A stretch of 64,000 nt of DNA from Terracidiphilus sp. (GTDB lineage: Bacteria > Acidobacteriota > Terriglobia > Terriglobales > Acidobacteriaceae): assembly GCA_049522255.1 (NCBI GenBank), contig JBEKOA010000001.1:4216-68215 (forward strand). The letters are read 5' to 3'. Positions within the stretch are counted from its first letter, which is position 1, and every line of letters begins with the position of its first letter. The translations under genes were made by a program, and so were the position numbers. A model generated the notes under the pieces. It had not been told where the DNA came from. It did no database searches and saw only the letters and a list, made by a program, of their open reading frames with translations. Positions 19,612 through 36,976 of the stretch are shown here, in pieces.

Positions 19612-19622
19612 TCGCAACTTGC

Positions 19623-19718
19623 TTGTGATCTCTATCGAGTTGCGCTAGTCTAACCCTAAGAGTGAGACAAGGCTGTCTCCTCGGGTTCTCTCTTCCCCGC
19701 ACCACGCCGTGCCTGGGG
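19623..19718 (+). promoter_or_regulatory. Putative sigma70 promoter and candidate ANTAR-type tandem hairpins in the nirA leader
   Basis: TTGTGA-N17-TAGTCT (19623-19651); GAGAC-AAGGCT-GTCTC (19664-19679); GCAC-CACGCC-GTGC (19699-19712). Confidence 0.5.
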
Positions 19719-19886
19719 CCTTCAGACCACAATCCCTTTACTCCATGCTCCGTGATGAGCCTTGAATTCTCCGCATTGTTTGCGGCATTCATCGGGTCTC
19801 AACGCCGCTTTGCGCACGCGCACACAAGCGCTTTCAACGGGCAGTCCGGTCCTCCTCATGGATGGACTACTGGAAGGAGTGATGGC

Positions 19887-21665
19887 ATGGAAACGCTGGA
19901 TACCCTCAATTCCCAGGATTTCACGGCAGTACAGAAGGAGTATCTTCTCGGCATCTTTTCGACTGCCACGCATCATGGCTTGCGTCCTTTCGCGGGCCAC
20001 ACCGCGACCGGGCTGCTGACCAACGATTCAACTCTTGGCTCGATCAATCTGGCGGAACCGCAAGAGGAGACCTACCACGGAACGCCAGTCTCCGATCTCT
20101 GCCGCGAAGAGCGATGGAAGTATGAGCAGAATCCTCTTGATATCTGGGACAAGCTGCTGGCTCATGCAGATGAAAATCGAACACCGGCAGCGGATGATCT
20201 TTTCCGCTTCAAATTTCACGGGCTATTTTACGTAGCTCCCGCGCAGGACTCCTTCATGCTCAGGCTGCGCGTCCCAGGCGGCATTCTTACCGCTCACCAA
20301 ATGCGCGGCCTGGCGGCGATGGCCTCCGATTGGGGATCGGGCCGCGTGGACATTACGACCCGTGCCAACCTGCAGATTCGCGAATTCCAGCCGAAAGAAA
20401 TTGTTCGCGTGCTCAACAAGCTGCAATCGCTTGGGCTTACCTCGCGCGGTTCAGGCGCAGACAATATTCGTAACATCACGGCTTCGCCGATCACCGGACT
20501 CGATCCCACTGAACTCTGCGATGTGGCGCCGCTGGCCGATGCGCTTCACCATTACATTCTGAATAGCCGCGATCTGTATGGGTTGCCGCGCAAATTCAAC
20601 GTAGCCTTCGACAATGGAGGCGCCATCAGCGTCGTTGCCGATACCAACGATATTGGCTTTGTTGCTGTCCGCGTTGGTGAAGGGCGCAGCCTTCCCACGG
20701 GCGTTTATTTTCGAGTATTGTTGTGCGGCATTACTGGGCACAAACAGTTCGCTACCGATTGCGGCTTGCTGTTACGCGCCGATCAGACCGTGGCTGTTGC
20801 CGCTGCCATGATACGTGTCTTCAGCGAGAACGGCGACCGAACGGATCGCAAAAAAGCGCGCCTGAAATACCTGGTGGATCGCTGGGGCGTCGACAAGTTT
20901 CTGGATGAGACTGAAATGCGTTTGTCCTTCCCGCTGATCCGCGTTCCGATCAATGAGTGCGAGCCGCGCCTGCCGATTGATCGCGCCGGCCACATCGGTG
21001 TTCACGCGCAACGTCAAGACGATCTGCACTATATTGGGATCTCCGTGCCGGTTGGCCGTCTTCCTGCCGCGCAGATGCTGGCCCTGGCTGACATAGCCAG
21101 CAGTTACGGCAGCGGGGAGTTGCGACTCACGGTCTGGCAGAACCTGTTGATCCCAAACATTCCAACCGCTCATCTGGATGCGACGTTGGCTGCGCTTCAA
21201 GCTGTCGGTCTTGATTGCACGGCAGGGACTGTTCTGCGAGGCACTGTTGCCTGCACAGGAAATCGCGGCTGCAAGTATGCATCGACCGACACCAAGACAC
21301 ACGCGGTTGAATTGGCCAGTCTGCTTGATGCACGATTCAAGATTGAACAGCCGGTCAATCTTCATGTGACCGGTTGTCCCCACTCCTGCGCACAACATTA
21401 CATCGGCGATATCGGCCTGCTCGGCATGAAGGTTGGCGGCGCCGAAGGCTATCAAGTGGTAATCGGTGGAGGCTCGGATCTGGACAAAGGCCTGGCGCGC
21501 GAGCTAATCCCTGCTATCGCCTATAGTGATTTGCCCCCCATGATGGAACGGCTCTTTGCCGCCTATATCGAACAGCGGAAGAGAGATGAGTCCTTCCTGG
21601 ATTTCAGCCGTAGACACAGCACTGCGGAGTTGCAATCGTTTTGCGCGGCAAAGGAGCGGAGATAG
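19887..21665 (+). CDS. nirA: Siroheme-[4Fe-4S] nitrite reductase, NirA family
   Basis: FKFHGLF, MLRLRVPGG, ITTRANLQIR, GADNIRN, LPRKFN, ACTG..GC, TGCPHSCAQH; GAAGGAG RBS. Confidence 0.88.
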   Translation: METLDTLNSQDFTAVQKEYLLGIFSTATHHGLRPFAGHTATGLLTNDSTLGSINLAEPQEETYHGTPVSDLCREERWKYEQNPLDIWDKLLAHADENRTPAADDLFRFKFHGLFYVAPAQDSFMLRLRVPGGILTAHQMRGLAAMASDWGSGRVDITTRANLQIREFQPKEIVRVLNKLQSLGLTSRGSGADNIRNITASPITGLDPTELCDVAPLADALHHYILNSRDLYGLPRKFNVAFDNGGAISVVADTNDIGFVAVRVGEGRSLPTGVYFRVLLCGITGHKQFATDCGLLLRADQTVAVAAAMIRVFSENGDRTDRKKARLKYLVDRWGVDKFLDETEMRLSFPLIRVPINECEPRLPIDRAGHIGVHAQRQDDLHYIGISVPVGRLPAAQMLALADIASSYGSGELRLTVWQNLLIPNIPTAHLDATLAALQAVGLDCTAGTVLRGTVACTGNRGCKYASTDTKTHAVELASLLDARFKIEQPVNLHVTGCPHSCAQHYIGDIGLLGMKVGGAEGYQVVIGGGSDLDKGLARELIPAIAYSDLPPMMERLFAAYIEQRKRDESFLDFSRRHSTAELQSFCAAKERR

Positions 21666-21667
21666 CT

Positions 21668-23440
21668 ATGTCCACCAACCCTCCCTATATTCCCGATAAT
21701 GCTCCCTTCACACCAGAACAGCGAGCGTGGCTCAACGGCTTTCTTGCCGGACTGTTTGCAGGCGATGGTCAGCAGGCTGCCGCTGCGGAGTCCAAACCAT
21801 CGCATCGCATTGCGATTCTTTATGCCTCGCAATCCGGCACTGCCGAAGGGCTGGCGCGCAGGCTGGCCAAGGAACTTAAGGCTCAGGGCCATCAGCCAGT
21901 GGTCTCAACATTGGTCGGCTATTCGCCGGCCGCGCTGGCGTCGGAGAAATATGCACTGATCTTTGCCAGCACTTATGGCGATGGTGAAGCTCCCGATGGC
22001 GTTCAGCCATTTTTTGAAGAACTCTGTCTTGAGCACTTTCCTCGCTTCGAGGGATTGTCTTACTCCGTCTTCGCGCTCGGAGATCGCCACTACGAAAACT
22101 TCTGCAAGTTTGGCAACGATCTTGACAGCAAACTGGCTGCATTGGGTGCCAATCGCCTGGCCAATCGTGTCGATTGCGATGTGGATGTCGATGAGCCGTT
22201 AGTGCAATGGAAAGCGGAAGTTCTTCCGCGGCTTAATGAATCGGCGCCAGCACTCAAGCTTTCAAGGGCCGCTTCAACCGCCGTGGCAGTGGCGGAAAGG
22301 CCAGCGCCAAATGCCTCGTTTACGCGCGATAATCCGGTCTTTGCTCCGCTGATTCACAAAAAAGATCTTACGCACAAGACCTCCAGCAAGACGACACTTC
22401 ATCTGGCATTCTCCATTGAGGGAACGGGTATTCAGTATGAATCCGGCGACGCCTGCGGTGTTCTGCCCGCAAACGATTGCAACCTGGTCGCCGAGATCCT
22501 GCAAGCTCTACGCTTCAACGGCAACGAGCGGGTTCAATGCGGTAAGGCAGAAACCATTCCTCTTCACAATGCGTTAACTCACCATCTGCAAATCACCCGC
22601 CTGAATCGCAAGATGGTCACTGAATATGCAAACCTGGGCAAGTGCGCGCTGCTCTCTTCGCTGCTGGAACCCAGGCAGCAGCCGGAACTGGACAGATACC
22701 TCTACGGCCGAGGACTGATTGACCTGTTGATCGAGTATCCTGGCGTGGTGCAGAGCCCGGAAGAACTTGTGGCAATGCTGCCCAAACTTACGCCGCGTCT
22801 CTATTCCATATCCTCCAGCCCCATTGCTCATGCCGGGCAAATTCATACCACAGTGGCCGTGGTGCGCTACAGCGCGCACAACCGTGAGCGCGGAGGAGTG
22901 TGCTCGACGCTCTTTGCCGATCGCGCTTCCGTCTCTGACCGTTTGCCTCTTTACATTCAACCGAACAAGCGGTTCAAATTGCCAAATGATTCCGACGCCC
23001 CCATGATCATGATTGGACCCGGCACGGGCATTGCGCCGTTCCGTGGCTTTCTGCACGAGCGCCGCGCACTGGGGGCCAAGGGAAAAAACTGGCTCTTCTT
23101 TGGTGAGCGCAGCGCAACAACCGATTACCTTTATCGGGACGAGTTGGAGGCCATGCAGGCCGATGGGCATCTGACCCGCTTGGATACTGCTTTCTCGCGC
23201 GATCAGGAAGATAAGATCTACGTGCAGGATCGTATGCTGGAGCAGGCTCCGTTGTTTTGGAGTTGGTTGCAGGATGGGGCTAGTGTTTACGTCTGCGGTG
23301 ACGCGTCACGAATGGCGAAGGATGTGCATGGAGCCTTGCAAACCATTGTTCAAACGCAAGGGGGAATGCCGGCGATTGCTGCGGAGGAATATGTGGAAAC
23401 CCTGAAAGAGCAGCATCGCTACCATCGGGATGTGTACTGA
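21668..23440 (+). CDS. CysJ-like diflavin (FMN/FAD/NADPH) reductase
   Basis: YASQSGTAE, STYGDGEAP, ALGD..Y..FC, PRLYSISSS, MIGPGTGIAPFRGF, YVQD, YVCGDA, YHRDVY. Confidence 0.9.
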   Translation: MSTNPPYIPDNAPFTPEQRAWLNGFLAGLFAGDGQQAAAAESKPSHRIAILYASQSGTAEGLARRLAKELKAQGHQPVVSTLVGYSPAALASEKYALIFASTYGDGEAPDGVQPFFEELCLEHFPRFEGLSYSVFALGDRHYENFCKFGNDLDSKLAALGANRLANRVDCDVDVDEPLVQWKAEVLPRLNESAPALKLSRAASTAVAVAERPAPNASFTRDNPVFAPLIHKKDLTHKTSSKTTLHLAFSIEGTGIQYESGDACGVLPANDCNLVAEILQALRFNGNERVQCGKAETIPLHNALTHHLQITRLNRKMVTEYANLGKCALLSSLLEPRQQPELDRYLYGRGLIDLLIEYPGVVQSPEELVAMLPKLTPRLYSISSSPIAHAGQIHTTVAVVRYSAHNRERGGVCSTLFADRASVSDRLPLYIQPNKRFKLPNDSDAPMIMIGPGTGIAPFRGFLHERRALGAKGKNWLFFGERSATTDYLYRDELEAMQADGHLTRLDTAFSRDQEDKIYVQDRMLEQAPLFWSWLQDGASVYVCGDASRMAKDVHGALQTIVQTQGGMPAIAAEEYVETLKEQHRYHRDVY

Positions 23441-23500
23441 GCCGCAATGGCATCTTTCTTGTATCTGTCATTCCTATTAAAATCAAAACCGGGATGCAGG

Positions 23501-24004
23501 ATGAGAGTCTGCAAGCTATACATTTCGCCAGGGCATAATTTCTTTGGCCACCACGAACAGCCGCCCGGAGAGTATCCGCTGATCGAGTGTGCGGAGCTCC
23601 GTTGTATGGCCGGTCGCGGAGTTGAAGGAGACCGCTTCTTCGACTACAAGGACAACTACAAGGGACAGATCACTTTCTTCTCTTCCGAGGTCTTCGAGGA
23701 ACTCTGTAATCTTCTCGGCGTGCACGACAAGTCTCCGGGGGCAACCCGTCGCAACGTCATCACCGCTGGAGTGGATCTGAATTCCCTGATCGAAAGAGAG
23801 TTTGACGTACAAGGCGTGCGTTTTTCAGGTGTAGCTGAGTGCAGCCCCTGTTATTGGATGGACAAAGCCATCGCACCCGGCGCCGAGGAATTCCTGAAAG
23901 GCCGGGGTGGGTTGCGCGCGCGGATTCTAACGGATGGGGTCCTCGTAGTCGAAGATGAAATTCTCTATCGCCATTCTGCAGATTCTCAGTGTCCCCTACT
24001 TTAA
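23501..24004 (+). CDS. MOSC-domain molybdoprotein (YiiM/mARC-like)
   Basis: GRGVEGDRF, QITFF, TRRNVI..GVDLN, CSPC, GRGGLRARIL..G. Confidence 0.85.
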   Translation: MRVCKLYISPGHNFFGHHEQPPGEYPLIECAELRCMAGRGVEGDRFFDYKDNYKGQITFFSSEVFEELCNLLGVHDKSPGATRRNVITAGVDLNSLIEREFDVQGVRFSGVAECSPCYWMDKAIAPGAEEFLKGRGGLRARILTDGVLVVEDEILYRHSADSQCPLL

Positions 24005-24196
24005 GTTGTTGCATGCGGCTCGAAGCTGCGGAGATTCCTTAACCTCGAAAGCTAATAAGGGACAAGTAACGCCCATCTGCTATCTACAGATCACTTGCGT
24101 TGGCCACTGGTAATGGAACTGCCGGTGAACAGAATGAAGGCACAAGACCCCATGTCGCGGCTTAGCCCCACCCTGGAGTCTGGCGGAGATCAATGC

Positions 24197-24212
24197 AGGG
24201 ACTTTTGTCACT
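24197..24212. promoter_or_regulatory. Copy 1 of a 16-bp CRP/FNR-like operator (AGGGAC-TTTT-GTCACT)
   Basis: Near-identical to 27193 and 31566; centred ~-42 from a TAGACT -10 candidate at 24235. Confidence 0.6.
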
Positions 24213-24380
24213 GAAAGGAGATTGACTGCCGATTTAGACTTGGTGAGTGCGTCCTTCCAGTCGTGTCCTGTTGAGGCACACCGGCCGTTAGGCCTGATAC
24301 AGTTGCCCTTGTGTTGCTTTGTCGGGAGATCTGAACCGCAAGAAGGCTTACACATCAAGTTCTCCCCAGGGGGCGTGTCC

Positions 24381-25616
24381 ATGTCGTTTCGTTCTGTGTT
24401 TGTGGCCGTCGTCATTGCGTTTGCTCTCATACTTTCCGCCTTCCTTGTCAATCGAGCCCGCCCCAAGGTAGAGACCGACCAGCCTACCGCCGACTTTGTT
24501 CGCGCGTCCGGCAAGTGTGCCGAGTGCCATGCCCGGCTTCAATACTCCGTCGTTCACGAATACGAGATGTCCGTACATGCGAAGAAAGGCGTGAATTGCC
24601 TGGACTGTCACGAACCCGGCCCCGGCCAGCAGAAGGTGGATCACCACGGCTTCGTGATCAGTACTCACTTGACGGCAGGCAACTGCCGCTCCTGTCACGA
24701 AGGCATCTATCAGGAGTTTCTGCGCAGCCGTCACGCCGCGCCCAGTTGGGCGGCCGTGCATGGCGAAGCGGGATTGAGTGCGGAGCAGGTTGCCTTCAGC
24801 GAGCAGTTCCAGCCCGGGGGAACGAAGCGTCCGCCCAACCCACTTACGGTTCCTGAGGGGCATCCAGCAATCACTTCGGGTTGCGAACAGTGCCACGCCA
24901 TTGGCAAGCCGAACGACGACGGCACGATTGGCAGTTGCACCGAATGCCACTCGCGCCACAGCAACTCTGTTGCTCTCGCCCGCCTGCCCACCACCTGCGG
25001 CCAGTGCCATATGGGGCCCGACCACTCCCAGGTTGAGATCTATAACGAGTCAAAGCACGGCGTGATGTTCGCCGCCCAAAGCAACCTTCTTCGGCTCGAC
25101 GCCGATCCTCGCACGTTGACGACTCGCGACATGTTCGTGCCAACCTGCGCGACCTGCCATATGAGCGGCATCAACGGCCTGAAGGTTACTCACAATCCGT
25201 CCGATCGACTCGGCTGGTATCTCGCCGACGCTGTCACGACCCATCGTCCAAACTACCTTCAGGCCCAGATCAATATGAAGCAGGTCTGCACCCAATGCCA
25301 CACCCCGGCGCGTATCGACCGAGTCTACGACCAGGGTGAAGAGGTCATCAAGGGCACAAACGCCAAGGTTCTTGCCGCCAAGGACATCATGGATGGATTG
25401 CACAAAGACGGAACCCTGACGGGCCCTCCGTTTAGCCACCCGATTGACTTTACCTACTTCAATCTGTGGCACTACGACGGCCGCACCAGCAAGCACGGAG
25501 CCTTCATGGGAGGCGCCGACTTCGTCCAATGGCACGGCAATTACGAAATGCTGTCGAAGACCGTCGAACTTCAGCACGACGCCGACGAACTACGGAGAGA
25601 GCATGCTCACAAGTAA
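24381..25616 (+). CDS. Membrane-anchored octaheme c-type cytochrome, hydroxylamine-oxidoreductase (HAO) family, reductive type
   Basis: 8 CxxCH (CAECH, CLDCH, CRSCH, CEQCH, CTECH, CGQCH, CATCH, CTQCH); HMGPDHSQ.EIY.ESKHG and DGR..HGAFMGGADFVQWHG HAO signatures; N-terminal TM. Confidence 0.85.
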   Translation: MSFRSVFVAVVIAFALILSAFLVNRARPKVETDQPTADFVRASGKCAECHARLQYSVVHEYEMSVHAKKGVNCLDCHEPGPGQQKVDHHGFVISTHLTAGNCRSCHEGIYQEFLRSRHAAPSWAAVHGEAGLSAEQVAFSEQFQPGGTKRPPNPLTVPEGHPAITSGCEQCHAIGKPNDDGTIGSCTECHSRHSNSVALARLPTTCGQCHMGPDHSQVEIYNESKHGVMFAAQSNLLRLDADPRTLTTRDMFVPTCATCHMSGINGLKVTHNPSDRLGWYLADAVTTHRPNYLQAQINMKQVCTQCHTPARIDRVYDQGEEVIKGTNAKVLAAKDIMDGLHKDGTLTGPPFSHPIDFTYFNLWHYDGRTSKHGAFMGGADFVQWHGNYEMLSKTVELQHDADELRREHAHK

Positions 25617-26547
25617 ACTGCTCCTTCGCATTCAGAAGATCATTCTCGACCCGCGCCTGCTGTGGGTGCACGATCTCACGCTTTGGGTCGAGCTGTTTGT
25701 CACCGTGAATCTGGCGATTCTTGCCGCGGACATTTACCTCGCACATTCGGTGAATCATTTTCAAAAGGCGGCGGAGTATATCCCGCTCTACTTTTCAATG
25801 GGCTCGCCGGTAGTGCTCGCGGCCGTGATCGCCCTGCGCTGGATAGGTCGATTTGAAGCTCCTTGGCGCGACGTAGGCTACCTGGTCGGTGGTCTTTCAG
25901 TGCTGGTCGGGTTAGGCGGAGTGCTTTACCACTTGGAGAGCCGGTTCTTTCTGGATCGCACGTTGAAGAGCCTCACCTACGCAGCGCCTTTTGCCGCGCC
26001 GCTCGCGTATACCGGCCTCGGCTTTCTCCTCTTGATGAATCGCATGGTGGCTGCGCGAAGTGCCGAGTGGGCACGTTGGGTGATCCTCCTGGCGCTGGGC
26101 GGCTTCTTCGGGAACTTCGTTCTGTCGTTGACCGACCACGCATCCAATGGCTTCTTTGCAAGAACCGAATGGATTCCCGTTGTTTCTTCGGCATTTGCTA
26201 CCGGATTCCTGATCGTCCTCCTCATGGCGGTGGTGACGCGCCGATTTCTCGACGCTTGCCTTGTGGTAATGTTCGCGCAGGCCTTCGTCGGTGTTTTGGG
26301 ATTCTGGTTTCATCTGCGCGCGAATCTGTTCGAGCCCGGCAGCAGCGTCTTCGACAAACTCGTCAATGGCGCTCCCCCAATGGCTCCGCTGCTATTTCCG
26401 AATCTCGTTGGACTGGCTCTGATCGGACTGTGGGCTTTGATTCCTCATTTACCGGAAGCGCCATCAAGCCGTTCCTGGCTGGGTGCAACTTACGCGTGGG
26501 TGCATCCCGGAGTGGAAACGGGTGCGTCAGATGGGCACGTTCGCTGA
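25603..26547 (+). CDS. Integral membrane protein with internal duplication and 4 conserved His; probable HAO partner
   Basis: Overlaps the hao stop; two halves each with H..N.F...E.IP, VG..G..(Y/F)HL and AP..AP. Confidence 0.75.
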   Translation: MLTSKLLLRIQKIILDPRLLWVHDLTLWVELFVTVNLAILAADIYLAHSVNHFQKAAEYIPLYFSMGSPVVLAAVIALRWIGRFEAPWRDVGYLVGGLSVLVGLGGVLYHLESRFFLDRTLKSLTYAAPFAAPLAYTGLGFLLLMNRMVAARSAEWARWVILLALGGFFGNFVLSLTDHASNGFFARTEWIPVVSSAFATGFLIVLLMAVVTRRFLDACLVVMFAQAFVGVLGFWFHLRANLFEPGSSVFDKLVNGAPPMAPLLFPNLVGLALIGLWALIPHLPEAPSSRSWLGATYAWVHPGVETGASDGHVR

Positions 26548-26631
26548 TCAGGCATTTCCATTGGCGCTTACTCGCATTCAACTTGCAGCCTGGAGATGTT
26601 CGACGCTGGAGCGTCGTGACCAGGCAGAAAC

Positions 26632-27174
26632 GTGAGAACTAACTTGGCGGTACAAATAGGCGCAAAACCGGACAGCGGATTCGACGATCCAATTGGGATG
26701 CTAGTGGACTGCCACCGCAGGGTCGAAGGCTTTCTTGGGATTTTATGCGCTGTAGTTGAGCGCGCCAAAAACAGAGAATTGACCGATGAAGAGAAGAGCG
26801 CGGTTCAATCGGCTCTTCAGTATTTCCAACTGGGTGGGCAGCGGCATACTGCCGATGAGGAGGAGTCTCTGTTTCCTCGGTTGCGGGGAAAACCAAATCC
26901 AGCAATCGACGCGATTGCCGGGCTGCAATCGGACCATCGCCGCGCCAATCGGTTGCATGATTCGATCGAGAGGATATATCTGACCTGGATCTCCAGCGGA
27001 AGACTGACACCCGAAGAGACAGAACGACTACTGTCTCAGACAGGTGAACTCAAAGAACTCTACTCAGCCCATATATTGATGGAGGAAACCGTCGTGTTCC
27101 CCTACGCAGCGAAGGTATTGGACGGCGAGGTTATTGCCAAAATTGCCGCCGAATTCAAGATGCGGAGAAAATGA
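26632..27174 (+). CDS. Hemerythrin-like (HHE) di-iron protein
   Basis: H..VE, HTADEEESLFP, DHRR, HILMEETVVFP. Confidence 0.85.
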   Translation: MRTNLAVQIGAKPDSGFDDPIGMLVDCHRRVEGFLGILCAVVERAKNRELTDEEKSAVQSALQYFQLGGQRHTADEEESLFPRLRGKPNPAIDAIAGLQSDHRRANRLHDSIERIYLTWISSGRLTPEETERLLSQTGELKELYSAHILMEETVVFPYAAKVLDGEVIAKIAAEFKMRRK

Positions 27175-27192
27175 CGGCGATTCTTCAATTGA

Positions 27193-27208
27193 AGTGACCA
27201 AAGTCGCT
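27193..27208. promoter_or_regulatory. Copy 2 of the 16-bp operator (AGTGAC-CAAA-GTCGCT)
   Basis: Centred -41.5 from a TACGCT -10 candidate at 27230, upstream of ric. Confidence 0.65.
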
Positions 27209-27254
27209 GTGGTTCATAATCCGAAGTCCTACGCTGTGGTTAAAGGAGATCGAA

Positions 27255-27974
27255 ATGACCCCAAACCCACAGACCGTTCGCGAAATCGCCCTGGAACAGC
27301 CATCTTCAATAAGAGTTTTTGAGAGATTTGGAATCGACTATTGCTGCGGGGGCCGCAAGCCTCTCAGCGAAGCGTGTATGGCCGGAAATCTTGAGGTAGA
27401 CATTGTGATCGCCGCGTTGGAAGCGGCTGCAAAGGCGCCGGATTCAGAAGTTGAAAACTGGTCCGGTAAGTCGTTGGAGAGCCTGAGCGCGCATATCGTC
27501 ACCACGCACCATGCCTACGTAAAGCGAGAACTGCCTAGACTCGCCGTGCTCGCCGAGAAGGTTGTGAATCGTCATGGCGCAACAAAGACGGAATTGCCGG
27601 GAATCGCTGGAACACTAGCGCGGCTCGACGGGGAACTCACGCAGCATCTGGCGAAAGAAGAAGCCGTCCTGTTTCCCTACATTGCGGATCTTGAACGGGC
27701 CGTTTCGAATCATGCCGCGAAGCCACGCAGTTGCTTCGGGACGGTTGCCAACCCGATCGCGATGATGACGCAGGAACACGATGCTGCCGGAACGCTCCTC
27801 GCTGAAATTCGTCGTCTCAGCCACAATTTCACCACGCCTGAGGATGCCTGCCCTACCTTTCATGCCTTCTACGGCGGGCTAAAGGAATTTGAACAGGACC
27901 TGCACCAGCACATTCATTTGGAGAACAACATACTGTTTCCGCGTGCAATAGAGATGGAGAAAGCCGCATCCTAA
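27255..27974 (+). CDS. ric: Iron-sulfur cluster repair di-iron protein (RIC/YtfE/ScdA)
   Basis: GIDYCCGG, HH.YVKRELP, HLAKEEAVLFP, EHD..G, HIHLENNILFP. Confidence 0.93.
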   Translation: MTPNPQTVREIALEQPSSIRVFERFGIDYCCGGRKPLSEACMAGNLEVDIVIAALEAAAKAPDSEVENWSGKSLESLSAHIVTTHHAYVKRELPRLAVLAEKVVNRHGATKTELPGIAGTLARLDGELTQHLAKEEAVLFPYIADLERAVSNHAAKPRSCFGTVANPIAMMTQEHDAAGTLLAEIRRLSHNFTTPEDACPTFHAFYGGLKEFEQDLHQHIHLENNILFPRAIEMEKAAS

Positions 27975-28007
27975 TCGATACTGGCCCAACTCAATAGCCA
28001 GGAAGAG

Positions 28008-29807
28008 TTACTCGTCGACTGGGGCTGTCTTCCTCGCCCCGCGGAACGGTGGACGAACGTGCAGGACGCGTTCCCGGCTGCGCTCCTCAGAGAGGTTGCG
28101 GGCGCGCGCACTCAGCATGTCATCGAGCGAAATCATGCCTAAGATTCTGCGTTCTTCGCCGCTATCCACCACCGGCATCCTCGTGAAACCCGTTTCTGCC
28201 ATGCGATAAACTAGAGTTCGCAGCGACTCATCTGCAACCGCCACGACGGGGTCGCGGCGTGCAATGTCGGACAGCAAGGCGCGATCGCTACTGCACTTGG
28301 CCAAATCCTTGCGGGTGATTACACCCCTCAGGCGGTGATTTGCATCGATCACGGGATAAAGGTGCTGCCCGCGAGAAGGATGGCCATTCTTCAACATTCT
28401 CAGTGCATCGTCGAGCGTGCCGCTCCCCTCGAACGCGAGTATTTGTGTACGCATCACTTCGCTAGCGAATAGCACCTCCAGCGGATCCACGCTGTACTCG
28501 CGGCTGAGATGAAAGCCGCGTCGAGCCACCTTCTCAGTCAGGATCGAACGCTTCAACACCAACACCGTGAACGTGTGCGCAATGACGGCGGCTACGATGA
28601 GTGGCAGGATCATGTTCACGTCGTGCGTCAGCTCGATTGCGAATACGATTCCGGTGAATGGCGAACGCATGGTGCCGGCAAGGATCGCTCCCATGCTGAC
28701 AAGTGGCCAGAAGCCGGGTCCGGCCGCGGGAAGAAACAAAGCTTCAAGGCCGCCCAATGCGCCACCCATCATCAGCAACGGGGCAAGAACCCCGCCCGAT
28801 GTTCCCGATCCCAACGATACCGCCCAGATAGTGGACTTCACCAGCAGGATTCCCAGCAGCAGGCCAATGGCGCCGTTGCCCTCAAGGAGAGTGGCAATTG
28901 TGTCGTAACCAACGCCGAGGGCCTGCGGAAAGATCATGCCTCCCAGCCCGATCACCAGGCCTCCGATAGCCGGCCACCACATCCAGTGGATCGGCAGCTT
29001 TGCGAAGGCATCCTCGGCGGCGTAGACGGCGCCGGTAAGCAATGCAGATAACGCACCCGCGAGCAGTCCGCAGACGACGCAGCCCATGAGCCCGCCAGGA
29101 CCAATGAATACAGAATGCGCCGGTGTAGGAAAGAGCGGGCCGAGACCGATCAGGTATCGCCGTGCTGCGCATGCAGTTGCACTGGCCAGCGCCACCGGAA
29201 TCAGACTGCGCGGCTTCCACTCGAAGAGCAGCAACTCGACCGCAAGAAGAATCGCCGAGAGTGGCGCGGCAAATGTGGCCGACATGCCGGCCGCCGCTCC
29301 GGCCACAAGCAAGGTCTTTCGTTCAGCGCTGGTGAGATGAAAAAACTGTGCGATCATCGACCCGAACGCGCCGCCCGTCATGATGATGGGGCCCTCCGCG
29401 CCGAATGGCCCGCCGGTTCCTATTGAAAGCGCTGCCGAGAGCGGCTTCAGAATTGCCAGCTTCGGATGCACCCTGCTGCCGCCGATCAAGATCGATTCGA
29501 TGGCCTCCGGTATGCCATGCCCGCGAATCCGTTCTGATCCGTAGCGTGCCATCAGGCCAATGATCAACCCGCCGGCTACTGGCACCAGAACAGCCCACCA
29601 GCCAAGGTGATTTTCCGCGGGTGAGACCAAGCTGCTTCCGATTCGCTGATAGTAGAAGAGATTGGTGAAGAACCCGATCAGCCGTAGCAGTGCAAGCGCA
29701 ACGTAGGCGCCGATGAGACCGATCACCATCGCCAGGCCGGCGATTGGCAGCACGCGACTCGTAGTTGTGAAATCGCCCAGCTTCTTAAGTTCCGCACAGA
29801 GTTTCAT
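28008..29807 (-). CDS. ClC-family anion channel/antiporter with a CBS pair
   Basis: GHGIP, GAEGP, GSGTSGGVLAP, FAIELT; C-terminal CBS (HLYPVID, RMPVVD). Confidence 0.9.
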   Translation of the reverse strand: MKLCAELKKLGDFTTTSRVLPIAGLAMVIGLIGAYVALALLRLIGFFTNLFYYQRIGSSLVSPAENHLGWWAVLVPVAGGLIIGLMARYGSERIRGHGIPEAIESILIGGSRVHPKLAILKPLSAALSIGTGGPFGAEGPIIMTGGAFGSMIAQFFHLTSAERKTLLVAGAAAGMSATFAAPLSAILLAVELLLFEWKPRSLIPVALASATACAARRYLIGLGPLFPTPAHSVFIGPGGLMGCVVCGLLAGALSALLTGAVYAAEDAFAKLPIHWMWWPAIGGLVIGLGGMIFPQALGVGYDTIATLLEGNGAIGLLLGILLVKSTIWAVSLGSGTSGGVLAPLLMMGGALGGLEALFLPAAGPGFWPLVSMGAILAGTMRSPFTGIVFAIELTHDVNMILPLIVAAVIAHTFTVLVLKRSILTEKVARRGFHLSREYSVDPLEVLFASEVMRTQILAFEGSGTLDDALRMLKNGHPSRGQHLYPVIDANHRLRGVITRKDLAKCSSDRALLSDIARRDPVVAVADESLRTLVYRMAETGFTRMPVVDSGEERRILGMISLDDMLSARARNLSEERSRERVLHVRPPFRGARKTAPVDE

Positions 29808-30229
29808 CCGCCATCCAGTACGCCGCTTAGCGTTTTCATCAGTTCAGGCCCTTTGGCCCGCAATTCTTCATGGTGCGCGAGAGACAACCTTTGCAACAAT
29901 GACTCTCCCTCACTCGTGAGCCGAACAAGCACTTCACGATGATCTGTTTCTGCCGCCACCCGCTCTACCATCCCGTGTTCCGTCATCCTGTTCACCAGTT
30001 CAACAGTGCTGTGATGGCGAATCAGCATCCGCGTCGCCAGCTCGCCGATCGTAGGCTTCACGCCATCCGGCAAGCCCTTGATGGCCAGCAAAAGCTGATG
30101 CTGTTGCGGCTCGATCCCATGAGTGCGTGCCTGATCTTCGCTGAACCGCAAAAACCGGCGGATCTGGTAACGAAATTCGGCCAGGTCTTGAAATTCGCGA
30201 GTCGTGAGCCGAGCTCTTCTTGCTGTCAT
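29804..30229 (-). CDS. MarR-family regulator
   Basis: IEPQQHQLLLAI, IGELA, HHSTVELVNRM..G.V.R...DHREVLVRLT.EG; overlaps the clc start. Confidence 0.88.
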   Translation of the reverse strand: MTARRARLTTREFQDLAEFRYQIRRFLRFSEDQARTHGIEPQQHQLLLAIKGLPDGVKPTIGELATRMLIRHHSTVELVNRMTEHGMVERVAAETDHREVLVRLTSEGESLLQRLSLAHHEELRAKGPELMKTLSGVLDGG

Positions 30230-30264
30230 CTATATATCGTATCACGATATATCGCCACACTCAA
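30230..30264 (-). promoter_or_regulatory. sigma70 promoter (TTGAGT-N17-TACGAT) overlapping a 9-3-9 inverted repeat; probably leaderless
   Basis: ATATATCGT-ATC-ACGATATAT at 30232-30252; -10 ends 6 nt before the ATG. Confidence 0.7.
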
Positions 30265-30419
30265 TTGGCCGCATCAGTTCGAGACCCGGCCAGGTCTGGA
30301 CGGTGCTGAAAACCCCGCTTTTTGAGCATCGGAGTTGACTGGCGAAGTCGCGCTATCGGTGGATGGGAGCCAACGCTAGCTGATCCGAAGCCCCGAATTC
30401 CCTGAAGGGACAGGGCGGA

Positions 30420-31529
30420 TCACATGCCGGGATGGGACAATTCGTTCGCGTGTGGCACGAGACGCAAATAGACTGAGCGCGGGATATTTGTCTGCCAGTG
30501 ATTTGTGGCTCGGGCAAATAGCATCAGTCCGAAAAAGATATACGCGAGAACGGCGGTGACGGCCAGAGGTCCAAGTGTGCGGCGAAACCATCGATGCGAG
30601 GCTGCCGCGCCGCGTCTCGGTGCAAGTGCGAATTGAAGCGCATCCTGCCGTGGGCAAACTGCCACGCATGCCAGGCACGCGTTGCACTCTGCCGACCGGA
30701 TCTGTGTCAGGCGGTCGACCGGCAGGCTTGCCGGACAAGCTCGCGCGCACTTTCCGCAATCGAGGCAGTGCTCTGCGTCTCGGCGAATCTTGACAGGACT
30801 AAGAAGCGAAACGAGCCCCATCAGCGCGCCGTAAGGACAGAGGTAGCGGCACCAGAAGTTCTTGAGCAGCAGGGAGCCGAAAACCAGAATGGCAAGGACG
30901 ATGGCGGCGGTCTGCCCCATATCGCGAAAGAAGTTCAACATCTTCACGTCTGCCACCAGGCCATAAGGAGTGTTCATGAAGCTCTCCAATGCCTCGCCGG
31001 ACATAGCGCCAATGACGAGAACGAAGAATCCGAGCAACAGGTATTTCAGCCCGCGTAAAGGGCTGTCGGCCCAACGGGGAAGTCGCAGATTGCGCCCGAA
31101 GATCCTTCGCCCTATCTTCCACAGATACTCTGAGAGTGTTCCCACTGGGCAAAGCCAGGAGCAGAAGGCCTTCTTCAGCAAAAGACTCATCAGCAGAAAG
31201 GCAATCAACAAAAACATGGCCGCAGGGTGAATGGACGGCACGCGCCCGGTAAATAGAAGGTACTTGAGATTCATCAGACCGGCGATGGGCAGCCAGCCCT
31301 CGGCCCCGGGAGGGCGAGGCACGTAAAATCCCTCACCTCCGTGTTCGAAATAGCGGACCCACAGAATGAACTGAACCCCAAGCCAGCCGTTCAAAGCCAC
31401 AAACAGCAACTGCACAAGGTGCCTGATCCGTTGGGAGTTGTCCGCCACGGGCCGGCGAATTAGCGGCTTCTTCTCGTTGAGGCGAGAAACTCCTTTTGCT
31501 GACTGGGTCTCCATGGCCGATTCTTCCAT
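30420..31529 (-). CDS. YccM/NapH-like membrane polyferredoxin
   Basis: CSWLCP, CRYLCP, CLDCGKCARACP, CNACLACVAVCP; TM helices. Confidence 0.85.
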   Translation of the reverse strand: MEESAMETQSAKGVSRLNEKKPLIRRPVADNSQRIRHLVQLLFVALNGWLGVQFILWVRYFEHGGEGFYVPRPPGAEGWLPIAGLMNLKYLLFTGRVPSIHPAAMFLLIAFLLMSLLLKKAFCSWLCPVGTLSEYLWKIGRRIFGRNLRLPRWADSPLRGLKYLLLGFFVLVIGAMSGEALESFMNTPYGLVADVKMLNFFRDMGQTAAIVLAILVFGSLLLKNFWCRYLCPYGALMGLVSLLSPVKIRRDAEHCLDCGKCARACPASLPVDRLTQIRSAECNACLACVAVCPRQDALQFALAPRRGAAASHRWFRRTLGPLAVTAVLAYIFFGLMLFARATNHWQTNIPRSVYLRLVPHANELSHPGM

Positions 31530-31565
31530 CTCGACCCAAGACTATAGCAAGAGAACAAGACGAAC

Positions 31566-31581
31566 AGCGACTTTTGTCACA
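31566..31581. promoter_or_regulatory. Copy 3 of the 16-bp operator (minus strand TGTGAC-AAAA-GTCGCT)
   Basis: Centred ~-40 from an extended -10 TGcTATAGT (31541-31549, minus). Confidence 0.65.
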
Positions 31582-31775: not shown

Positions 31776-31803
31776 AGAAAGATCCGGCCCCGCGGGGGGC
31801 CGG
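31776..31803 (-). terminator. Rho-independent terminator candidate
   Basis: CCGGCCCC-N4-GGGGCCGG followed by ATCTTTCTT on the minus strand. Confidence 0.55.
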
Positions 31804-31845: not shown

Positions 31846-32402
31846 TTACTTCACGGTGATCGTAAAAGTTTGCGTGCTCTTGCATCCGCTGGTGTTAGTG
31901 TAGGTGGCCACATACAAGTCTGCGCCTACGGTCAACGGAATGCTGTTGATTTGACGCAAGGTCGACGTGTACTTGTTAGGGCCGGTCCAGCTCCATGATC
32001 CGCCGCTGGATGGCTGCGGGCCGAGGTCCACAACCGTTGAGGTGGAACTTGCCGTTGCTCTGGATTCCTCCGTCCAGGTTGCGCCCCCATTGATTGAGAT
32101 GTACGGAGTGATAGTGGTCGGCGTGCAGTTGACCGTCAAGGCAATCGTCGTGCTGGCGGTCAGGCTGGCGGAGGTTCCTTTGACGGTGATCGTAGCCGAG
32201 CCTACCGGGGCCGAACTGCTTGGAGTGAGGGTGAGCATGCTGCTTCCGTTGGTTGGGTTAGAGGCAAAGGTTGCAGCCACGCCGCTGGGCAGGCCGGAGG
32301 CGGCAAGCGTCACGCTGCCGGTGAATCCGTTCTGCCCTGTCACAGTGACGGTAGATTTTCCTGAAGTACCCTGGGCTATGCTCAGCGATGCAGGCGAAGC
32401 GC
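31846..32402 (-). pseudogene. 3' fragment of a secreted Ser/Thr-rich Ig-like repeat protein
   Basis: SPASLSIAQG..TVTVTGQNGFTGSVTL.ASGLPSGV.ATF plus C-terminal LGPQP..GGSWSWTGP domain; no signal peptide or credible start. Confidence 0.65.
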
Positions 32403-32423
32403 CGCCCCTGTTATTCTTGAAGC

Positions 32424-32996
32424 GTGATTCATCACTCAAGACTCCATGGATTTGCCGCGATGAGCCTGCTGTTGGCAGTGACTCTCTTCGCATGCCACAA
32501 GGAAGAGCAGGCTGTGGTGGGCGTGGCCAAGACCGCGGTCAACGCCGAAAAACAGGCTCGAGCCACGGCTCAAGAGAACGCAACCGAAAGCGACCAGAAC
32601 CGCGCGGCCCTGGCACTGATCCCGCTGCCTACCAAGAGCATGTATGTGGACGTGCACGAGCCCGGCGCGTGGGTCAATCCCTTTCTCTCCGTCGATACCG
32701 ATACCCTCAACCTGCGCATCACGATGGCCGACGCCAACACTAGCTCCGTGGGCCAGGGAACCATGTTGCGGCCCGAGGCCGCCCGCCGCCAGGAGATCCA
32801 GATTCGTCCCGCCGATCTCGCAAAGGCACTGATCGCACTGCCCCCCGGCGCATGGCGATATGGCCGCGTGATCGCCGTGGCCGAGTCGCCCGTAGCCAGC
32901 AAAAAGGACCGCCCCACTGTCCGCCGCAACGTTGAAGCCGCCATCAAGCAGCTCAACGATCTCGGCATTGTTGTCGAGGAGTGGCCCACGCGCTAG
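32424..32996 (+). CDS. Hypothetical lipoprotein
   Basis: Hydrophobic stretch ending LFAC (lipobox-like); high-GC codon pattern. Confidence 0.65.
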   Translation: MIHHSRLHGFAAMSLLLAVTLFACHKEEQAVVGVAKTAVNAEKQARATAQENATESDQNRAALALIPLPTKSMYVDVHEPGAWVNPFLSVDTDTLNLRITMADANTSSVGQGTMLRPEAARRQEIQIRPADLAKALIALPPGAWRYGRVIAVAESPVASKKDRPTVRRNVEAAIKQLNDLGIVVEEWPTR

Positions 32997-33057: not shown

Positions 33058-33909
33058 TCAATGCAGTAGAGAACCTACCCGTTGCCGCATTTTACCGAGT
33101 GCCAGCAGGATGCCGTGGAGCAGCGCCTCCGGGCGAGGCGGGCATCCGGGGATGTAGACGTCAACCGGAATCACCGCATCCACTCCGCCCAGCGAGGCGT
33201 AGTTGGCGCCGAAGATGCCTCCACTGATGCCGCATGCGCCCACGGCGACCACGATCTTTGGATCAGGCGTCGCGGCCCAGACCTTGCGCAATGCCAGTTC
33301 CATGTTGCGCGTGACCGGGCCGGTGACCAGCAGCATGTCGGCATGACGCGGCGATGCCACGAAGTGAATGCCAAATCGTTCAATGTCATGTACCGGATTA
33401 TTCAACGCAACGATCTCCTGCTCGCAGCCGTTGCACGAGCCTGCATCGACTTGGCGAATCGCAAGCGACCGTCCGAGCAGGTTTTGAATTGCCGCCGCGA
33501 TTCGCTTGCCGGGCTCATCAAGGACCGGGCCACATGTGGACGATTGCAGCGTGGCATGGGTGGCATCGGGATTGAGCGTGTATTTGGCGGTCAGCACGAG
33601 ATCGCGGCGATCGCCGGCCGCAAGCTCGAACTTTCGCGTCATGCGCACTGCACTGTCTGCATTGGCCGCCTCGCATTCGCCGCAAAAAATGCACCGGCCG
33701 TAGTCAACGGTGACCTGTCGCAGGCCGTCGGAGTCGCGGAGGGCGATGGCTCCAGTGGGGCAAGCCTCGGCCGCGGGACGCGCATCGTGCCAAATTTCAA
33801 ACTCAAACTCAGGGCATCCGCGAAACTGCTCGGCCAGGCGCGGTGAAACGTTTGGATAGTCGGCCGTCGCCGTGCCGATGCTGAACGATTTTTGGAGGAT
33901 CTTGAACAT
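33058..33909 (-). CDS. ehrS: Ehr/group-4 small subunit (NuoB/HycG-like) fused to an N-terminal ferredoxin (NuoI/HycF-like)
   Basis: DAGSCNGCE, SPRHAD, GACG.SGG, PGCPP; N-terminal ACPTGAI and CIFCGEC. Confidence 0.85.
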   Translation of the reverse strand: MFKILQKSFSIGTATADYPNVSPRLAEQFRGCPEFEFEIWHDARPAAEACPTGAIALRDSDGLRQVTVDYGRCIFCGECEAANADSAVRMTRKFELAAGDRRDLVLTAKYTLNPDATHATLQSSTCGPVLDEPGKRIAAAIQNLLGRSLAIRQVDAGSCNGCEQEIVALNNPVHDIERFGIHFVASPRHADMLLVTGPVTRNMELALRKVWAATPDPKIVVAVGACGISGGIFGANYASLGGVDAVIPVDVYIPGCPPRPEALLHGILLALGKMRQRVGSLLH

Positions 33910-33913
33910 CGTG

Positions 33914-35491
33914 TTACCGATCCGTTCCCGAGTAGGACAAGTTGAAACTCTTGTTGATCACCGGAAAATCCGCAATGATGTTGCCCTCGACGGCTTCCAC
34001 GATCCCCGGCCAGTTATTGATGGATGGATCTTTGACCTTGCAACGTTCAATGCGATTGCCTTCGCCGGTGCGGACCCAGTGAATGATTTCGCCGCGCCAG
34101 CCTTCGACGGCACTCATCGCGCAGCGGCCCGGCGGAATGGGCGCGGTTGGTGCGCGATGCGGACCCTCAGGAAGAAGTGAAACCGCCGCGCGGATCATCT
34201 GGATCGACTCGCCCACCTCATCGATGCGAACCAGCATTCGATGGCGCACGTCGCCCACATGATATACAGGGACTTTGAATGGGAGCTGGTTGTAGGCCTC
34301 GTAAGGATGGTCGCGCCGGATATCGCGATCGACGCCGGAGGCGCGCCCTGCCACGCCGACGACTCCAAGTATGGCTGCCTTATCCGGGCGCAGGATTCCA
34401 GTGTGCTCCAGGCGGTCGCGGGTCGAGTCGGAGGATTGAATGATCGCCACCAGATCGCGGAATTCGCGTTCCACTGTTTTAAGCGTTCTTGTGATGGCTT
34501 CGACCTGATCCGGCTGCCAGTCTCGGCGCACGCCGCCAATGGCGACCATTCCGCGCAACACGCGGCTTCCGGTGAGTGTCTCGTTCAAGCCCAGCACATC
34601 CTCTCGAATTCGTCCCGCATGCGCGTTGGCAATGGCAAAACCGACATCGGTGGCGATGGCTCCGACATCGGCGATGTGATTTGAAATGCGTTCGAGCTCA
34701 AGGAGAATGACACGCATGAATTGCGCCCGTGCCGGGACATCGATCTCCGCCGCCCGTTCGACCGCCTGGCAAAATGCTGCGCCGTGAGAAAAGGCCGAGT
34801 CGCCTGAAATGCTCTCAGCAAGAAACACGGCGCGATGAATCGGGAGACTCTCAAAAAGCTTCTCGGTCCCTTTGTGCGTGTAAAACATGCGGAGTTGCAA
34901 GTAGAGGATCGGCTCTCCGGCGACGGCGAAATTGAAGTGACCGGGCTCAATGATGCCGGCATGAACCGGCCCGACGGGAATCTGAAAGACGCCTTCACCG
35001 TACGTCGGCCGGTAGACGTGCTGCTCTCCTGAAAATGTAGGCAGCACGGTGTCGAGCGCGAAGCTTTTGCGCAGCGGATGCACATCGGGCCAGTTATCGT
35101 GGAGCGCGACACGGCGCGGGTTCGGATGGCCCACAGCTTCGAGGCCGAACCAATCCTGAATCTCGCGCTCCTGCCAGTTGATGGCCGGCAACTCCGCGGC
35201 CAGCGATGAGAATGACGGAAATCGCTCGGGGATGGGAGCCTTCAGAATGACCCAGCTTGCCTCGCCCGGCCGGTCGAAGACATAGTAGTTATAAAAGACG
35301 CCTTCCGCACTTACTCGATCCTCGGCAAAGACAGTCACGATCCTCGCCTGGTGTTCGATGAGGAAGTGCCGGACAATCCCTGTGACATTGGGGCTGTTCA
35401 ATAAAACCACAACCTGATCGGGAACGGCTTCTTCCACCGACCGGACAATACCCGGGAATCGATCGTGAAGTTCATCGAAGAATGTTGTCAT
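33914..35491 (-). CDS. ehrL: Ehr large subunit (NuoC+NuoD/HyfG-like) lacking Ni-binding cysteines
   Basis: W.EREI.D.FG, GPVHAG, YTHKGTEK, ESISGDS in place of RxCGxC, EGWRGE, C-terminal DFPVINKSFNLSYSG in place of DPCxxC; ATGA overlap sets the start. Confidence 0.87.
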   Translation of the reverse strand: MTTFFDELHDRFPGIVRSVEEAVPDQVVVLLNSPNVTGIVRHFLIEHQARIVTVFAEDRVSAEGVFYNYYVFDRPGEASWVILKAPIPERFPSFSSLAAELPAINWQEREIQDWFGLEAVGHPNPRRVALHDNWPDVHPLRKSFALDTVLPTFSGEQHVYRPTYGEGVFQIPVGPVHAGIIEPGHFNFAVAGEPILYLQLRMFYTHKGTEKLFESLPIHRAVFLAESISGDSAFSHGAAFCQAVERAAEIDVPARAQFMRVILLELERISNHIADVGAIATDVGFAIANAHAGRIREDVLGLNETLTGSRVLRGMVAIGGVRRDWQPDQVEAITRTLKTVEREFRDLVAIIQSSDSTRDRLEHTGILRPDKAAILGVVGVAGRASGVDRDIRRDHPYEAYNQLPFKVPVYHVGDVRHRMLVRIDEVGESIQMIRAAVSLLPEGPHRAPTAPIPPGRCAMSAVEGWRGEIIHWVRTGEGNRIERCKVKDPSINNWPGIVEAVEGNIIADFPVINKSFNLSYSGTDR

Positions 35492-36975: not shown

Positions 36976-36976
36976 C

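Follow-up and report, generated by a model that had tools for sequence, protein, structure and literature searches.

Members of the CRP/FNR regulator family that are co-localised with hcp, named HcpR, were described by Rodionov et al. in 2005 (PMC1274295). Besides hcp itself, they target a membrane or ferredoxin gene associated with it, dnrN/ric, and genes that are hemerythrin-like or cytochrome c-like. The HcpR of Desulfovibrio, which is of the R180/E181 type, recognizes a GTGA core within wTGTGA-N6-TCACAw; among these regulators, a G at motif position 3 goes with R180 and an A at position 6 goes with E181 (PMC1274295). NsrR is a different kind of protein, an Rrf2-family [Fe-S] repressor with the AT-rich operator gATGyAT-N5-ATrCATc (PMC1274295). 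In the literature that we searched, we found no description of HcpR in Acidobacteriota. Here we analyze a stretch of 64,000 nucleotides from Terracidiphilus sp. (Acidobacteriaceae; contig JBEKOA010000001.1), which we call the window, and in particular three palindromes that lie near a gene for an octahaem cytochrome of the HAO family (hao), ric, and a gene for a NapH/YccM-like polyferredoxin (the yccM-like gene).

A sequence-only reading of the window had proposed that these palindromes are the operators of a nitrosative-stress regulon and that they are bound by an HcpR/DNR-like activator encoded outside the window. We put the probability at roughly 85% that they are binding sites of a CRP/FNR-family factor for nitric oxide (NO) stress, an analogue of HcpR and DNR that acts in trans and from the class II position.

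Three intergenic palindromes

The three sites are listed with their scores against a weight matrix that was derived from other genomes (see below).

Site 1, positions 24197–24212: AGGGACTTTTGTCACT, 23.5 bits
Site 2, positions 27193–27208: AGTGACCAAAGTCGCT, 24.5 bits
Site 3, positions 31566–31581: AGCGACTTTTGTCACA, 23.4 bits

The coordinates and sequences given by the sequence-only reading were exact, and all three sites (3/3) fall in intergenic DNA. Site 1 is flanked by a MOSC gene, which ends 193 nt away at 24004, and by hao, whose ATG is at 24381, 176.5 nt from the centre of the site. Site 2 is between a hemerythrin gene (end at 27174) and ric (ATG at 27255). Site 3 is upstream of the minus-strand yccM-like gene (ATG at 31514 or 31529) and downstream of a minus-strand terminator at 31784–31803. 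All three sites match G-N-GAC-N4-GTC-N-C, which is a two-fold symmetric inverted repeat with the TGA-N6-TCA core and within the 14–22 bp length of CRP/FNR operators, and their consensus is cAG[T/C/G]GAC-wwwr-GTC[A/G/C]CTg. On the minus strand, site 1 reads GTGACAAAAGTCCC, a norB-type variant, and site 3 reads GTGACAAAAGTCGC. The perfect half of site 3 is promoter-distal relative to the yccM-like gene, as is the perfect half of site 2 relative to ric.

The proposal depended on the motif not being frequent at random and on its conservation in orthologous promoters. On the first point, the bare palindrome by itself is weak evidence against chance: GTGAC-N4-GTCAC with up to one mismatch is not rare, with four matches in the 64-kb window versus 1.38 expected, and 8 of 100 shuffled windows reached four matches. 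A degenerate pattern fitted to the three sites has zero matches expected by chance, a calculation whose reasoning is circular. As an independent test, we used a 22-nt weight matrix that was trained exclusively on sites from other genomes; the consensus of its 130 unique orthologous sites is CGCAGTGACTTAAGTCACTGCG, with G at motif position 3 in 245 of the 260 half-sites. The three sites score 23.4–24.5 bits, and they are the only ones that the matrix finds: every other position in the window scores under 8 bits, and the top score over 30 shuffles was 15.3 bits. The fourth match to the bare palindrome, at 38522, is a chance match. It lies under an open reading frame (ORF), and its spacer is G+C-rich, as is also seen for chance matches in related loci.

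Conservation and predicted class II geometry in related loci

To compare the sites across relatives, we scanned GTDB species representatives with RIC, which gave 80 loci whose RIC proteins are 67–88% identical. The palindrome is present upstream of ric in 81 of 81 sequences (the 80 loci and the window; 79 are unique), so the second point, conservation in orthologous promoters, is borne out. The distance from its centre to the ric ATG is mostly 52–56 nt, and 76 unique proximal sites are at 52–60 nt. The ric upstream regions keep just three blocks, namely AGTGACCAAAGTCGCTG, TAnnnT, and the Shine-Dalgarno sequence, and the remaining intergenic sequence has diverged freely. Within this footprint, the conserved palindrome spans 18 nt. 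It is because of the independent matrix and this phylogenetic footprint, and not because of the bare palindrome, that we reject chance.

The spacing is also fixed. In 73 of the 79 unique ric promoters, a distance of 29.5 or 30.5 nt separates the centre of the palindrome from the first T of TAnnnT, which would place that centre at -41.5 or -42.5, the class II position. The same spacing was found upstream of hcp (22/22), ric2 (37/37), the yccM-like gene (14/14), and the qNor gene norB (25/25). In the window, candidate -10 elements of the form TAnnnT had been predicted beside all three sites, and they are where they were said to be: TAGACT, TACGCT, and TGcTATAGT begin 30.5, 29.5, and 27.5 nt from the centres of sites 1, 2, and 3, so that these centres would be near -42.5, -41.5, and -39.5. 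(TAGACT is described with the hao promoter, below.)

27230–27235, plus strand: -10 element of the ric promoter, TACGCT, starting 29.5 nt from the centre of site 2
31541–31549, minus strand: extended -10 element of the yccM-like gene, TGcTATAGT, starting 27.5 nt from the centre of site 3

From the -10 element, transcription of ric is predicted to start near 27242. We did not detect a sigma70 -35/-10 pair at any of the three sites, which fits dependence on an activator.

The sites have a polarity as well. Throughout the class II promoters of the regulon, GTGAC, the perfect half, is promoter-distal and the imperfect half is promoter-proximal, and the imperfect half is specific to the gene: GTCGC for ric, hcp, and the yccM-like gene, GTTAC for ric2, and GTCCC for norB and the crp gene. 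Sites 2 and 3 follow this polarity toward ric and the yccM-like gene.

Across 1.40 Mb of related loci, there were 264 matches with up to one mismatch, of which 210 sit less than 330 nt upstream of regulon genes. About 25 of the 264 are background-like (they have a G+C-rich spacer or are in coding sequence), which agrees with the chance rate in the window. The regulon in the relatives comprises ric, ric2, hcp, the NapH/YccM-like ferredoxin gene, qNor norB, a radical-SAM gene, a regulator gene, and the octahaem HAO-family gene. The proposed membership of hao, ric, and the yccM-like gene is supported (with hao less secure), but the regulon extends well beyond these three genes. We found hcp (Prismane, 537 bits) in 20 of the related loci, each time with a proximal site; a tblastn search found no hcp in the window. 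The content of this regulon (hcp, two ric genes, qNor, and hemerythrins) is a canonical NO-stress set. There were no nir or nos genes in the related loci that we examined, and these organisms look like NO detoxifiers rather than denitrifiers.

A CRP/FNR regulator is linked to the sites in relatives

Within 10 kb of ric, 59 of the 80 related loci encode a CRP/FNR protein of 234 amino acids that combines cNMP_binding and HTH_Crp_2 domains. The orthologs at this distance are 73–93% identical. The gene is bracketed by sites, and it is often divergent from ric or directly downstream of a co-oriented hcp; it adjoins hcp in L007/L090, L059, L067, L068, L078, L080, and L081. The sequence-only reading had suggested looking for a CRP/FNR paralogue near other matches to the motif, and this protein answers that description. 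In one locus (L016), two sites flank the regulator's ORF, which is divergent from a radical-SAM/SPASM gene (TIGR04053, AhbD-like) and is followed by ric2 and a membrane protein of 450–500 amino acids, with hcp and a yccM-like gene nearby. The membrane protein downstream of ric2 (L016, 2222–3721) is polytopic and belongs to no Pfam or NCBIfam family. In the divergent region of this locus (5090–5165) and in its orthologs, the centre of the site is 26 nt from the annotated start of the regulator and 42 nt from the ATG of the radical-SAM gene. Leaders this short suggest that the mRNAs are leaderless or that the starts were mis-called, and the arrangement suggests that the regulator controls its own gene.

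The residues that should contact DNA agree with the motif. The recognition helix, GTVRELVSRNL, aligns with GCSRETVGRIL of E. coli CRP, and R180, E181, and R185 are kept; VRELVSR is conserved in 60 orthologs. The motif caGTGAC has G at position 3 and A at position 6, so it matches the R180/E181 rule of PMC1274295. Together with the linkage to ric, this fit to the GTGA core supports the proposal of a CRP/FNR-family activator of the HcpR/DNR kind.

R82, the arginine of CRP that binds the phosphate, is replaced (GGPFPASA in the regulator versus GGPRTASA or EGQERSAW), so cAMP is unlikely to be the ligand. Just two cysteines are conserved, C51 and C120, which makes an FNR-type four-cysteine [4Fe-4S] cluster unlikely. 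The conserved histidines are H55, H123, and H184, and a reasonable guess is that the regulator is a haem-based or other metal-based NO sensor, with C51, H55, C120, H123, and H184 as candidate ligands. The best matches in the PDB are generic CRP proteins, the top ones presumably CRP/GlxR of Corynebacterium and Mycobacterium (the actinobacterial type), and DNR of P. aeruginosa matches at E = 3.5e-17. NCBIfam models gave only sub-threshold, generic CRP/FNR matches. Soil and peat metagenomes contain the family in abundance, with thousands of homologues, and it is annotated solely as "Crp/Fnr family." Telmatobacter bradus, a cultured relative, has two paralogues (P0019 and P0056).

In some genomes, the regulator gene (crp) stands with hemerythrin and ric2 genes in a small module apart from the other targets. 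Because of this, its absence from the window is unremarkable and action in trans is plausible. From its presence in relatives, a cognate regulator is predicted for this organism. A bolder idea, which is possible but doubtful, is that the linked regulator defines an undescribed clade of CRP/FNR sensors that governs an NO-detoxification island of Acidobacteriaceae, consisting of qNor, Hcp, two RIC paralogues, hemerythrins, the AhbD-like radical-SAM protein, and the octahaem HAO-family cytochrome with its seven-transmembrane (7-TM) partner.

Site 1 and the promoter of hao

In most relatives, hao is divergent from norB and there is a single site between them. This shared site is 79.5–90.5 nt upstream of the norB ATG in most relatives and has a perfect class II -10 element on the norB side. 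The norB gene is absent from the window, and three features surround site 1.

24100–24196, minus strand: decayed promoter and leader remnant of norB (qNor), aligned to the norB upstream regions of L097, L096, L037, and L018
24235–24240, plus strand: candidate class II -10 element for hao (P1), TAGACT, starting 30.5 nt from the centre of site 1
24271–24304, plus strand: candidate hao promoter (P2), TTGAGG-N16-CCTGATACAGTT, a conserved block that resembles an extended -10

In the remnant, CAGGGT stands where the -10 element TACGGT was, and the leader motif TCTTG..TTCATTC survives; nothing is left of the Shine-Dalgarno sequence, the ATG, or the gene. By its ancestry, site 1 is the promoter site for a divergent qNor norB that was deleted here. 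The remnant implies that the nirA-cysJ-MOSC module or another rearrangement replaced norB. In the closest relative (L007/L090), norB was lost differently: hisS is upstream and the sequence is unrelated up to the edge of the site, but the identical site is kept, with a TAnnnT at +30.5 toward hao. Because site 1 is intact beside a decayed norB -10 element and is identical in L007/L090, it appears to have been maintained for hao. Control of hao by site 1 is likely, although it is less secure than control of ric and of the yccM-like gene.

Of 17 hao orthologs, 16 keep site 1 at 162–182 nt upstream of their ATG, and L053 has it at 264.5 nt. The extended -10-like element of P2, CTGnTAnAGT, has a match in 17 of 17 hao orthologs, 85.5–96.5 nt downstream of the centre of the site in 16 of them and 175.5 nt downstream in L053. 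If P2 is used, then site 1 would be near -105. hao may have its own promoter in P2, or a second regulator may bind there. In most orthologs, a TTGATG-like hexamer precedes CTGnTAnAGT, with a 21-nt spacer to the -10. We rejected this hexamer as an FNR box (there is no second half-site) or as a standard -35 (given the 21-nt spacer), and a sigma-54 reading of the P2 block was rejected for its GG/GC spacing, which is incorrect as judged from the sequence. For the hao leader (135 nt), an RNA element was likewise rejected: RNAalifold found no conserved fold there, and no Rfam family matched anywhere in the window.

Evidence against an NO-responsive activator, and alternative explanations

Several of our results weigh against an NO-responsive class II activator at all three sites. 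Class II geometry had been proposed for all three genes, and it is supported for ric and the yccM-like gene; hao is where it gives way. A class II TAnnnT (at +29.5 or +30.5) is found toward hao in only 5 of 17 orthologs. Among these 5 are the two lineages that have no norB beside hao, namely the window and its closest relative. By its polarity, site 1 faces away from hao, and the better-conserved promoter-like block is about 93 nt downstream of the site. At site 3, the offset of the -10 element is unusual (27.5 nt versus 29.5 nt in relatives). The transcription starts are predicted from the -10 elements, the RNA data being assembled contigs. As had been predicted, no CRP/FNR gene is encoded in the window (by tblastn with the L016 regulator and by a full-sensitivity hidden Markov model search of six-frame ORFs), and there is none in the 10 kb beyond the end of the window. 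The regulator of this organism was not located; seven close homologues (P0008, P0010, P0013, P0014, P0017, P0058, and P0117) are in other genomes. Finally, HcpR of P. gingivalis is not among the 60 best PDB matches of the regulator.

The results for hao bear on the alternative that survives best, in which sites 2 and 3 are functional, site 1 is only left over from the promoter of the deleted norB and regulates nothing any more, and the P2 block alone drives hao. The perfect half of site 1 does point to the lost norB, whose decayed -10 element and leader adjoin it, and the scarcity of class II -10 elements toward hao, together with the conserved extended -10-like block 85–96 nt downstream, is what this explanation would lead one to expect. 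But site 1 is intact at 23.5 bits, equal to working norB sites, even though the norB -10 element has decayed. Also, the closest relative lost norB in a different context and yet kept both the identical site and the TAnnnT toward hao, and the samples with transcripts of ric and the yccM-like gene also have transcripts of hao. We consider it unlikely that site 1 is a relic.

It is also improbable, and more clearly so, that the sites are bound by a general oxygen or redox regulator of the FNR type, or by a repressor that occludes the -35 region, instead of by an NO-responsive activator. FNR uses CRP/FNR sites at -41.5 too, and an occupied -35 region could lead to repression. These points are countered by the absence of a four-cysteine ligand set for [4Fe-4S] from the regulator (C51 and C120 are the conserved cysteines), by promoters that have no -35 hexamer and so would be inactive unless activated, and by a regulon that is NO-specific and does not consist of respiratory genes.

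The MarR protein that is encoded in the window at 29804–30229 was another candidate for the binding protein; it would regulate its own gene and repress ric and hao. MarR proteins bind palindromes of 16–20 bp. This gene (MarR_2) is downstream of the yccM-like gene with an RNA contig that spans the junction, and the marR-clc pair recurs beside ric in several relatives. However, the site is present in all 80 loci, and a marR homologue is within 10 kb in about a dozen of them, versus 59 for the CRP/FNR gene. There is no site upstream of marR-clc in L090, L096, or L098, and the fixed spacing of 29.5 or 30.5 nt to the -10 element is the signature of a class II activator. Because its co-occurrence with the site fails, we rejected MarR, which is very unlikely to be the binding protein.

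That the three matches are chance palindromes or RNA hairpins (terminators or attenuators) can be dismissed: a bare 10-position palindrome with one mismatch does occur about 1.4 times per 64 kb by chance, and a simple terminator scan marks site 3 as a 5-bp hairpin, but the matrix from other genomes puts the sites more than 8 bits above any shuffle, their conservation in 80 loci is position-specific while the flanks diverge, the sites are upstream of the -10 elements and hence are not transcribed from these promoters, and neither the Rfam search nor the analysis of the hao leader found an RNA structure.

Genes of the window and their transcription

To the left of site 1, the gene order is HemD-GAF-ANTAR, NirA-like, CysJ-like, and MOSC. 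Site 1 is followed by hao, the 7-TM gene, and a hemerythrin gene, and site 2 by ric (RIC/YtfE). On the minus strand, reading away from site 3, are the NapH/YccM-like, MarR, and ClC-CBS genes, with an Ech/Hyf-like complex beyond.

24381–25616, plus strand: hao, octahaem cytochrome c of the HAO family, 411 amino acids, eight CxxCH motifs, N-terminal membrane anchor (Pfam Multi-haem_cyto)
25603–26547, plus strand: 7-TM membrane protein, 314 amino acids, seven predicted transmembrane segments, overlapping the 3' end of hao
26632–27174, plus strand: hemerythrin-domain protein (Pfam), start uncertain (26632 or 26644)
27255–27974, plus strand: ric/ytfE, di-iron iron-sulfur cluster repair protein, ScdA_N and hemerythrin domains, TIGR03652 at 239.6 bits (cutoff 204.7)
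28008–29807, minus strand: ClC/CBS channel gene (Pfam), translationally coupled to marR
29804–30229, minus strand: marR (Pfam MarR_2)
30420–31529, minus strand: NapH/YccM-like membrane polyferredoxin, two Fer4_5 domains and a 2x[4Fe-4S] motif (Pfam, NCBIfam)
31784–31803, minus strand: intrinsic terminator, eight G-C pairs and a T-rich tail

Against NCBIfam, the product of hao has a weak match to hydrazine dehydrogenase. The 7-TM gene is always paired with the octahaem gene, and its product matches no Pfam or NCBIfam family. In relatives, the gene for this hemerythrin protein comes after the radical-SAM gene and is under the divergent site of the regulator. From alignment to the L016 ortholog, the conserved start of the yccM-like gene is probably the ATG at 31514. 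The terminator would insulate the site 3 promoter from the upstream gene.

Near-identical or identical contigs come from peat and wetland metagenomes, and the closest genomes are metagenome-assembled genomes (MAGs) of Terracidiphilus-like Acidobacteriaceae. The target genes are transcribed in situ: in four peat metatranscriptomes, RNA contigs cover ric (at depths of about 50–115, the highest in the region), the yccM-like gene (16–39), and hao (2–16); the depth of contigs reflects expression only roughly. No RNA contig from these four metatranscriptomes falls on MOSC or on the intergenic regions. One contig (26471–26654) crosses the junction of the 7-TM and hemerythrin genes, and another (30008–31055) crosses from the yccM-like gene into marR. 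The RNA is compatible with three units: hao with the 7-TM and hemerythrin genes, which are probably co-transcribed; ric by itself; and the yccM-like gene, from which transcription possibly reads through into marR and the ClC/CBS gene in this genome only. These data are assembled Logan contigs, which break at strain variants and carry no 5' ends. Two contigs that extend 131 nt and at least 255 nt upstream of the hao ATG are from other strains and are uninformative for the window.

The regulon had been described as a regulatory layer separate from ANTAR. In keeping with this, there is no site near the ANTAR or nirA genes, and MOSC, at the end of that operon, is without RNA contigs. That part of the window (17818–24004) encodes a fusion of HemD (uroporphyrinogen-III synthase), GAF, and ANTAR, and downstream of it a sirohaem reductase (NirA-like), a flavoprotein (CysJ-like), and MOSC; homologues of the ANTAR, NirA-like, and CysJ-like proteins are found near ric in several relatives (L034, L037, and L049).

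A few other features of the neighborhood may be mentioned. The pair of marR and ClC/CBS genes recurs beside ric without a palindrome in relatives that include L090, L096, and L098, and the ion transported by the ClC/CBS protein is possibly nitrite or nitrate. A minus-strand ORF (31846–32493) for a Ser/Thr-rich protein of 215 amino acids that matches no family precedes the very strong terminator at 31784–31803. Further metatranscriptome contigs end or diverge around 32285–32329. At 33058–40625 (minus strand), a cluster with homologues of NuoB, NuoCD, NuoL, and NuoH, which resembles an Ech/Hyf-type membrane-bound hydrogenase or complex I, is immediately downstream of the NO-stress genes.

Proposed mechanism and its significance

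We propose that a dimeric CRP/FNR-family factor, specific to the nitrosative-stress island of Acidobacteriaceae and encoded elsewhere in the genome, would bind the three palindromes in trans when NO or nitrite stress activates it. The factor is expected to act as an activator rather than as a repressor. At the ric and yccM-like promoters, the site would take the place of the -35 element, with its centre about 41.5 nt (ric) or 39.5 nt (yccM-like) upstream of the predicted start, and would recruit RNA polymerase in the class II manner. Site 1 descends from a bidirectional norB/hao control region. In this genome, it is probably what drives hao, the 7-TM gene, and the hemerythrin gene as one unit, either as a class II site through TAGACT or from a distance on the conserved downstream promoter.

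Acidobacteriaceae dominate acidic peat and forest soils, where nitrite decomposes chemically to NO. No new mechanism is revealed. The operator and the regulator give a sequence-level handle on the anti-NO genes of uncultured bacteria (Hcp, RIC, qNor, and the octahaem HAO-like enzyme), and with the operator, the regulon can be annotated in hundreds of MAGs. The co-variation of recognition-helix residues and motif bases in the CRP/FNR family is extended to a new phylum, and a polarity rule is added, by which the promoter-distal half-site is the perfect one. Should the HAO-like module prove to be a regulated reductase of NO, hydroxylamine, or nitrite, then the island could be a significant and overlooked control point of NO and nitrous oxide (N2O) turnover in acidic peat.

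Comparison with known systems

HcpR is among the closest described systems. As with HcpR, the regulator in relatives is beside hcp, and there are sites upstream of hcp, a ferredoxin/membrane gene, and ric. The motif, in contrast, is a hybrid: G3 and A6 are as in the Desulfovibrio type, C7 and G8 are as in TTGAC-N4-GTCAA, and there are CAG/CTG flanks besides. The ferredoxin partner here is NapH/YccM-like, and the regulon adds qNor and the octahaem HAO-family gene. The likeness to HcpR is a functional one.

DNR and NnrR are NO-linked CRP/FNR activators that act from about -41.5, as is proposed for the factor here, and norB is a direct target in relatives of our organism as it is for them. However, their boxes are FNR-like (TTGAT/TTGCG-type, with T at position 3) and their proteins do not have R180, unlike the motif and the regulator described here. 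The NsrR regulon of proteobacteria and firmicutes (hcp, ytfE/dnrN, hmp, and nnrS) shares the targets hcp and ric/ytfE and the presumed signal, but the operator here has a different shape from that of NsrR, and there was no Rrf2 gene among the ORFs that we scanned or in the precomputed Pfam hits of the loci that we fetched. E. coli CRP and actinobacterial CRP/GlxR share the fold family, R180/E181/R185, and, as predicted here, a centre near -41.5, and the E. coli TGTGA-N6-TCACA core is contained in GTGAC-N4-GTCAC; in contrast to E. coli CRP, R82 is replaced in the regulator and the regulon is for NO stress instead of carbon metabolism.

Overall, this is functionally a regulon of the HcpR/DNR type, a kind that is already known, and its targets overlap the core sets that were defined in 2005. 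What is new is the motif variant, the regulator clade, and the phylum, none of which had been described, along with the unusual members: the octahaem HAO-family cytochrome with its 7-TM partner and the AhbD-like radical-SAM protein.

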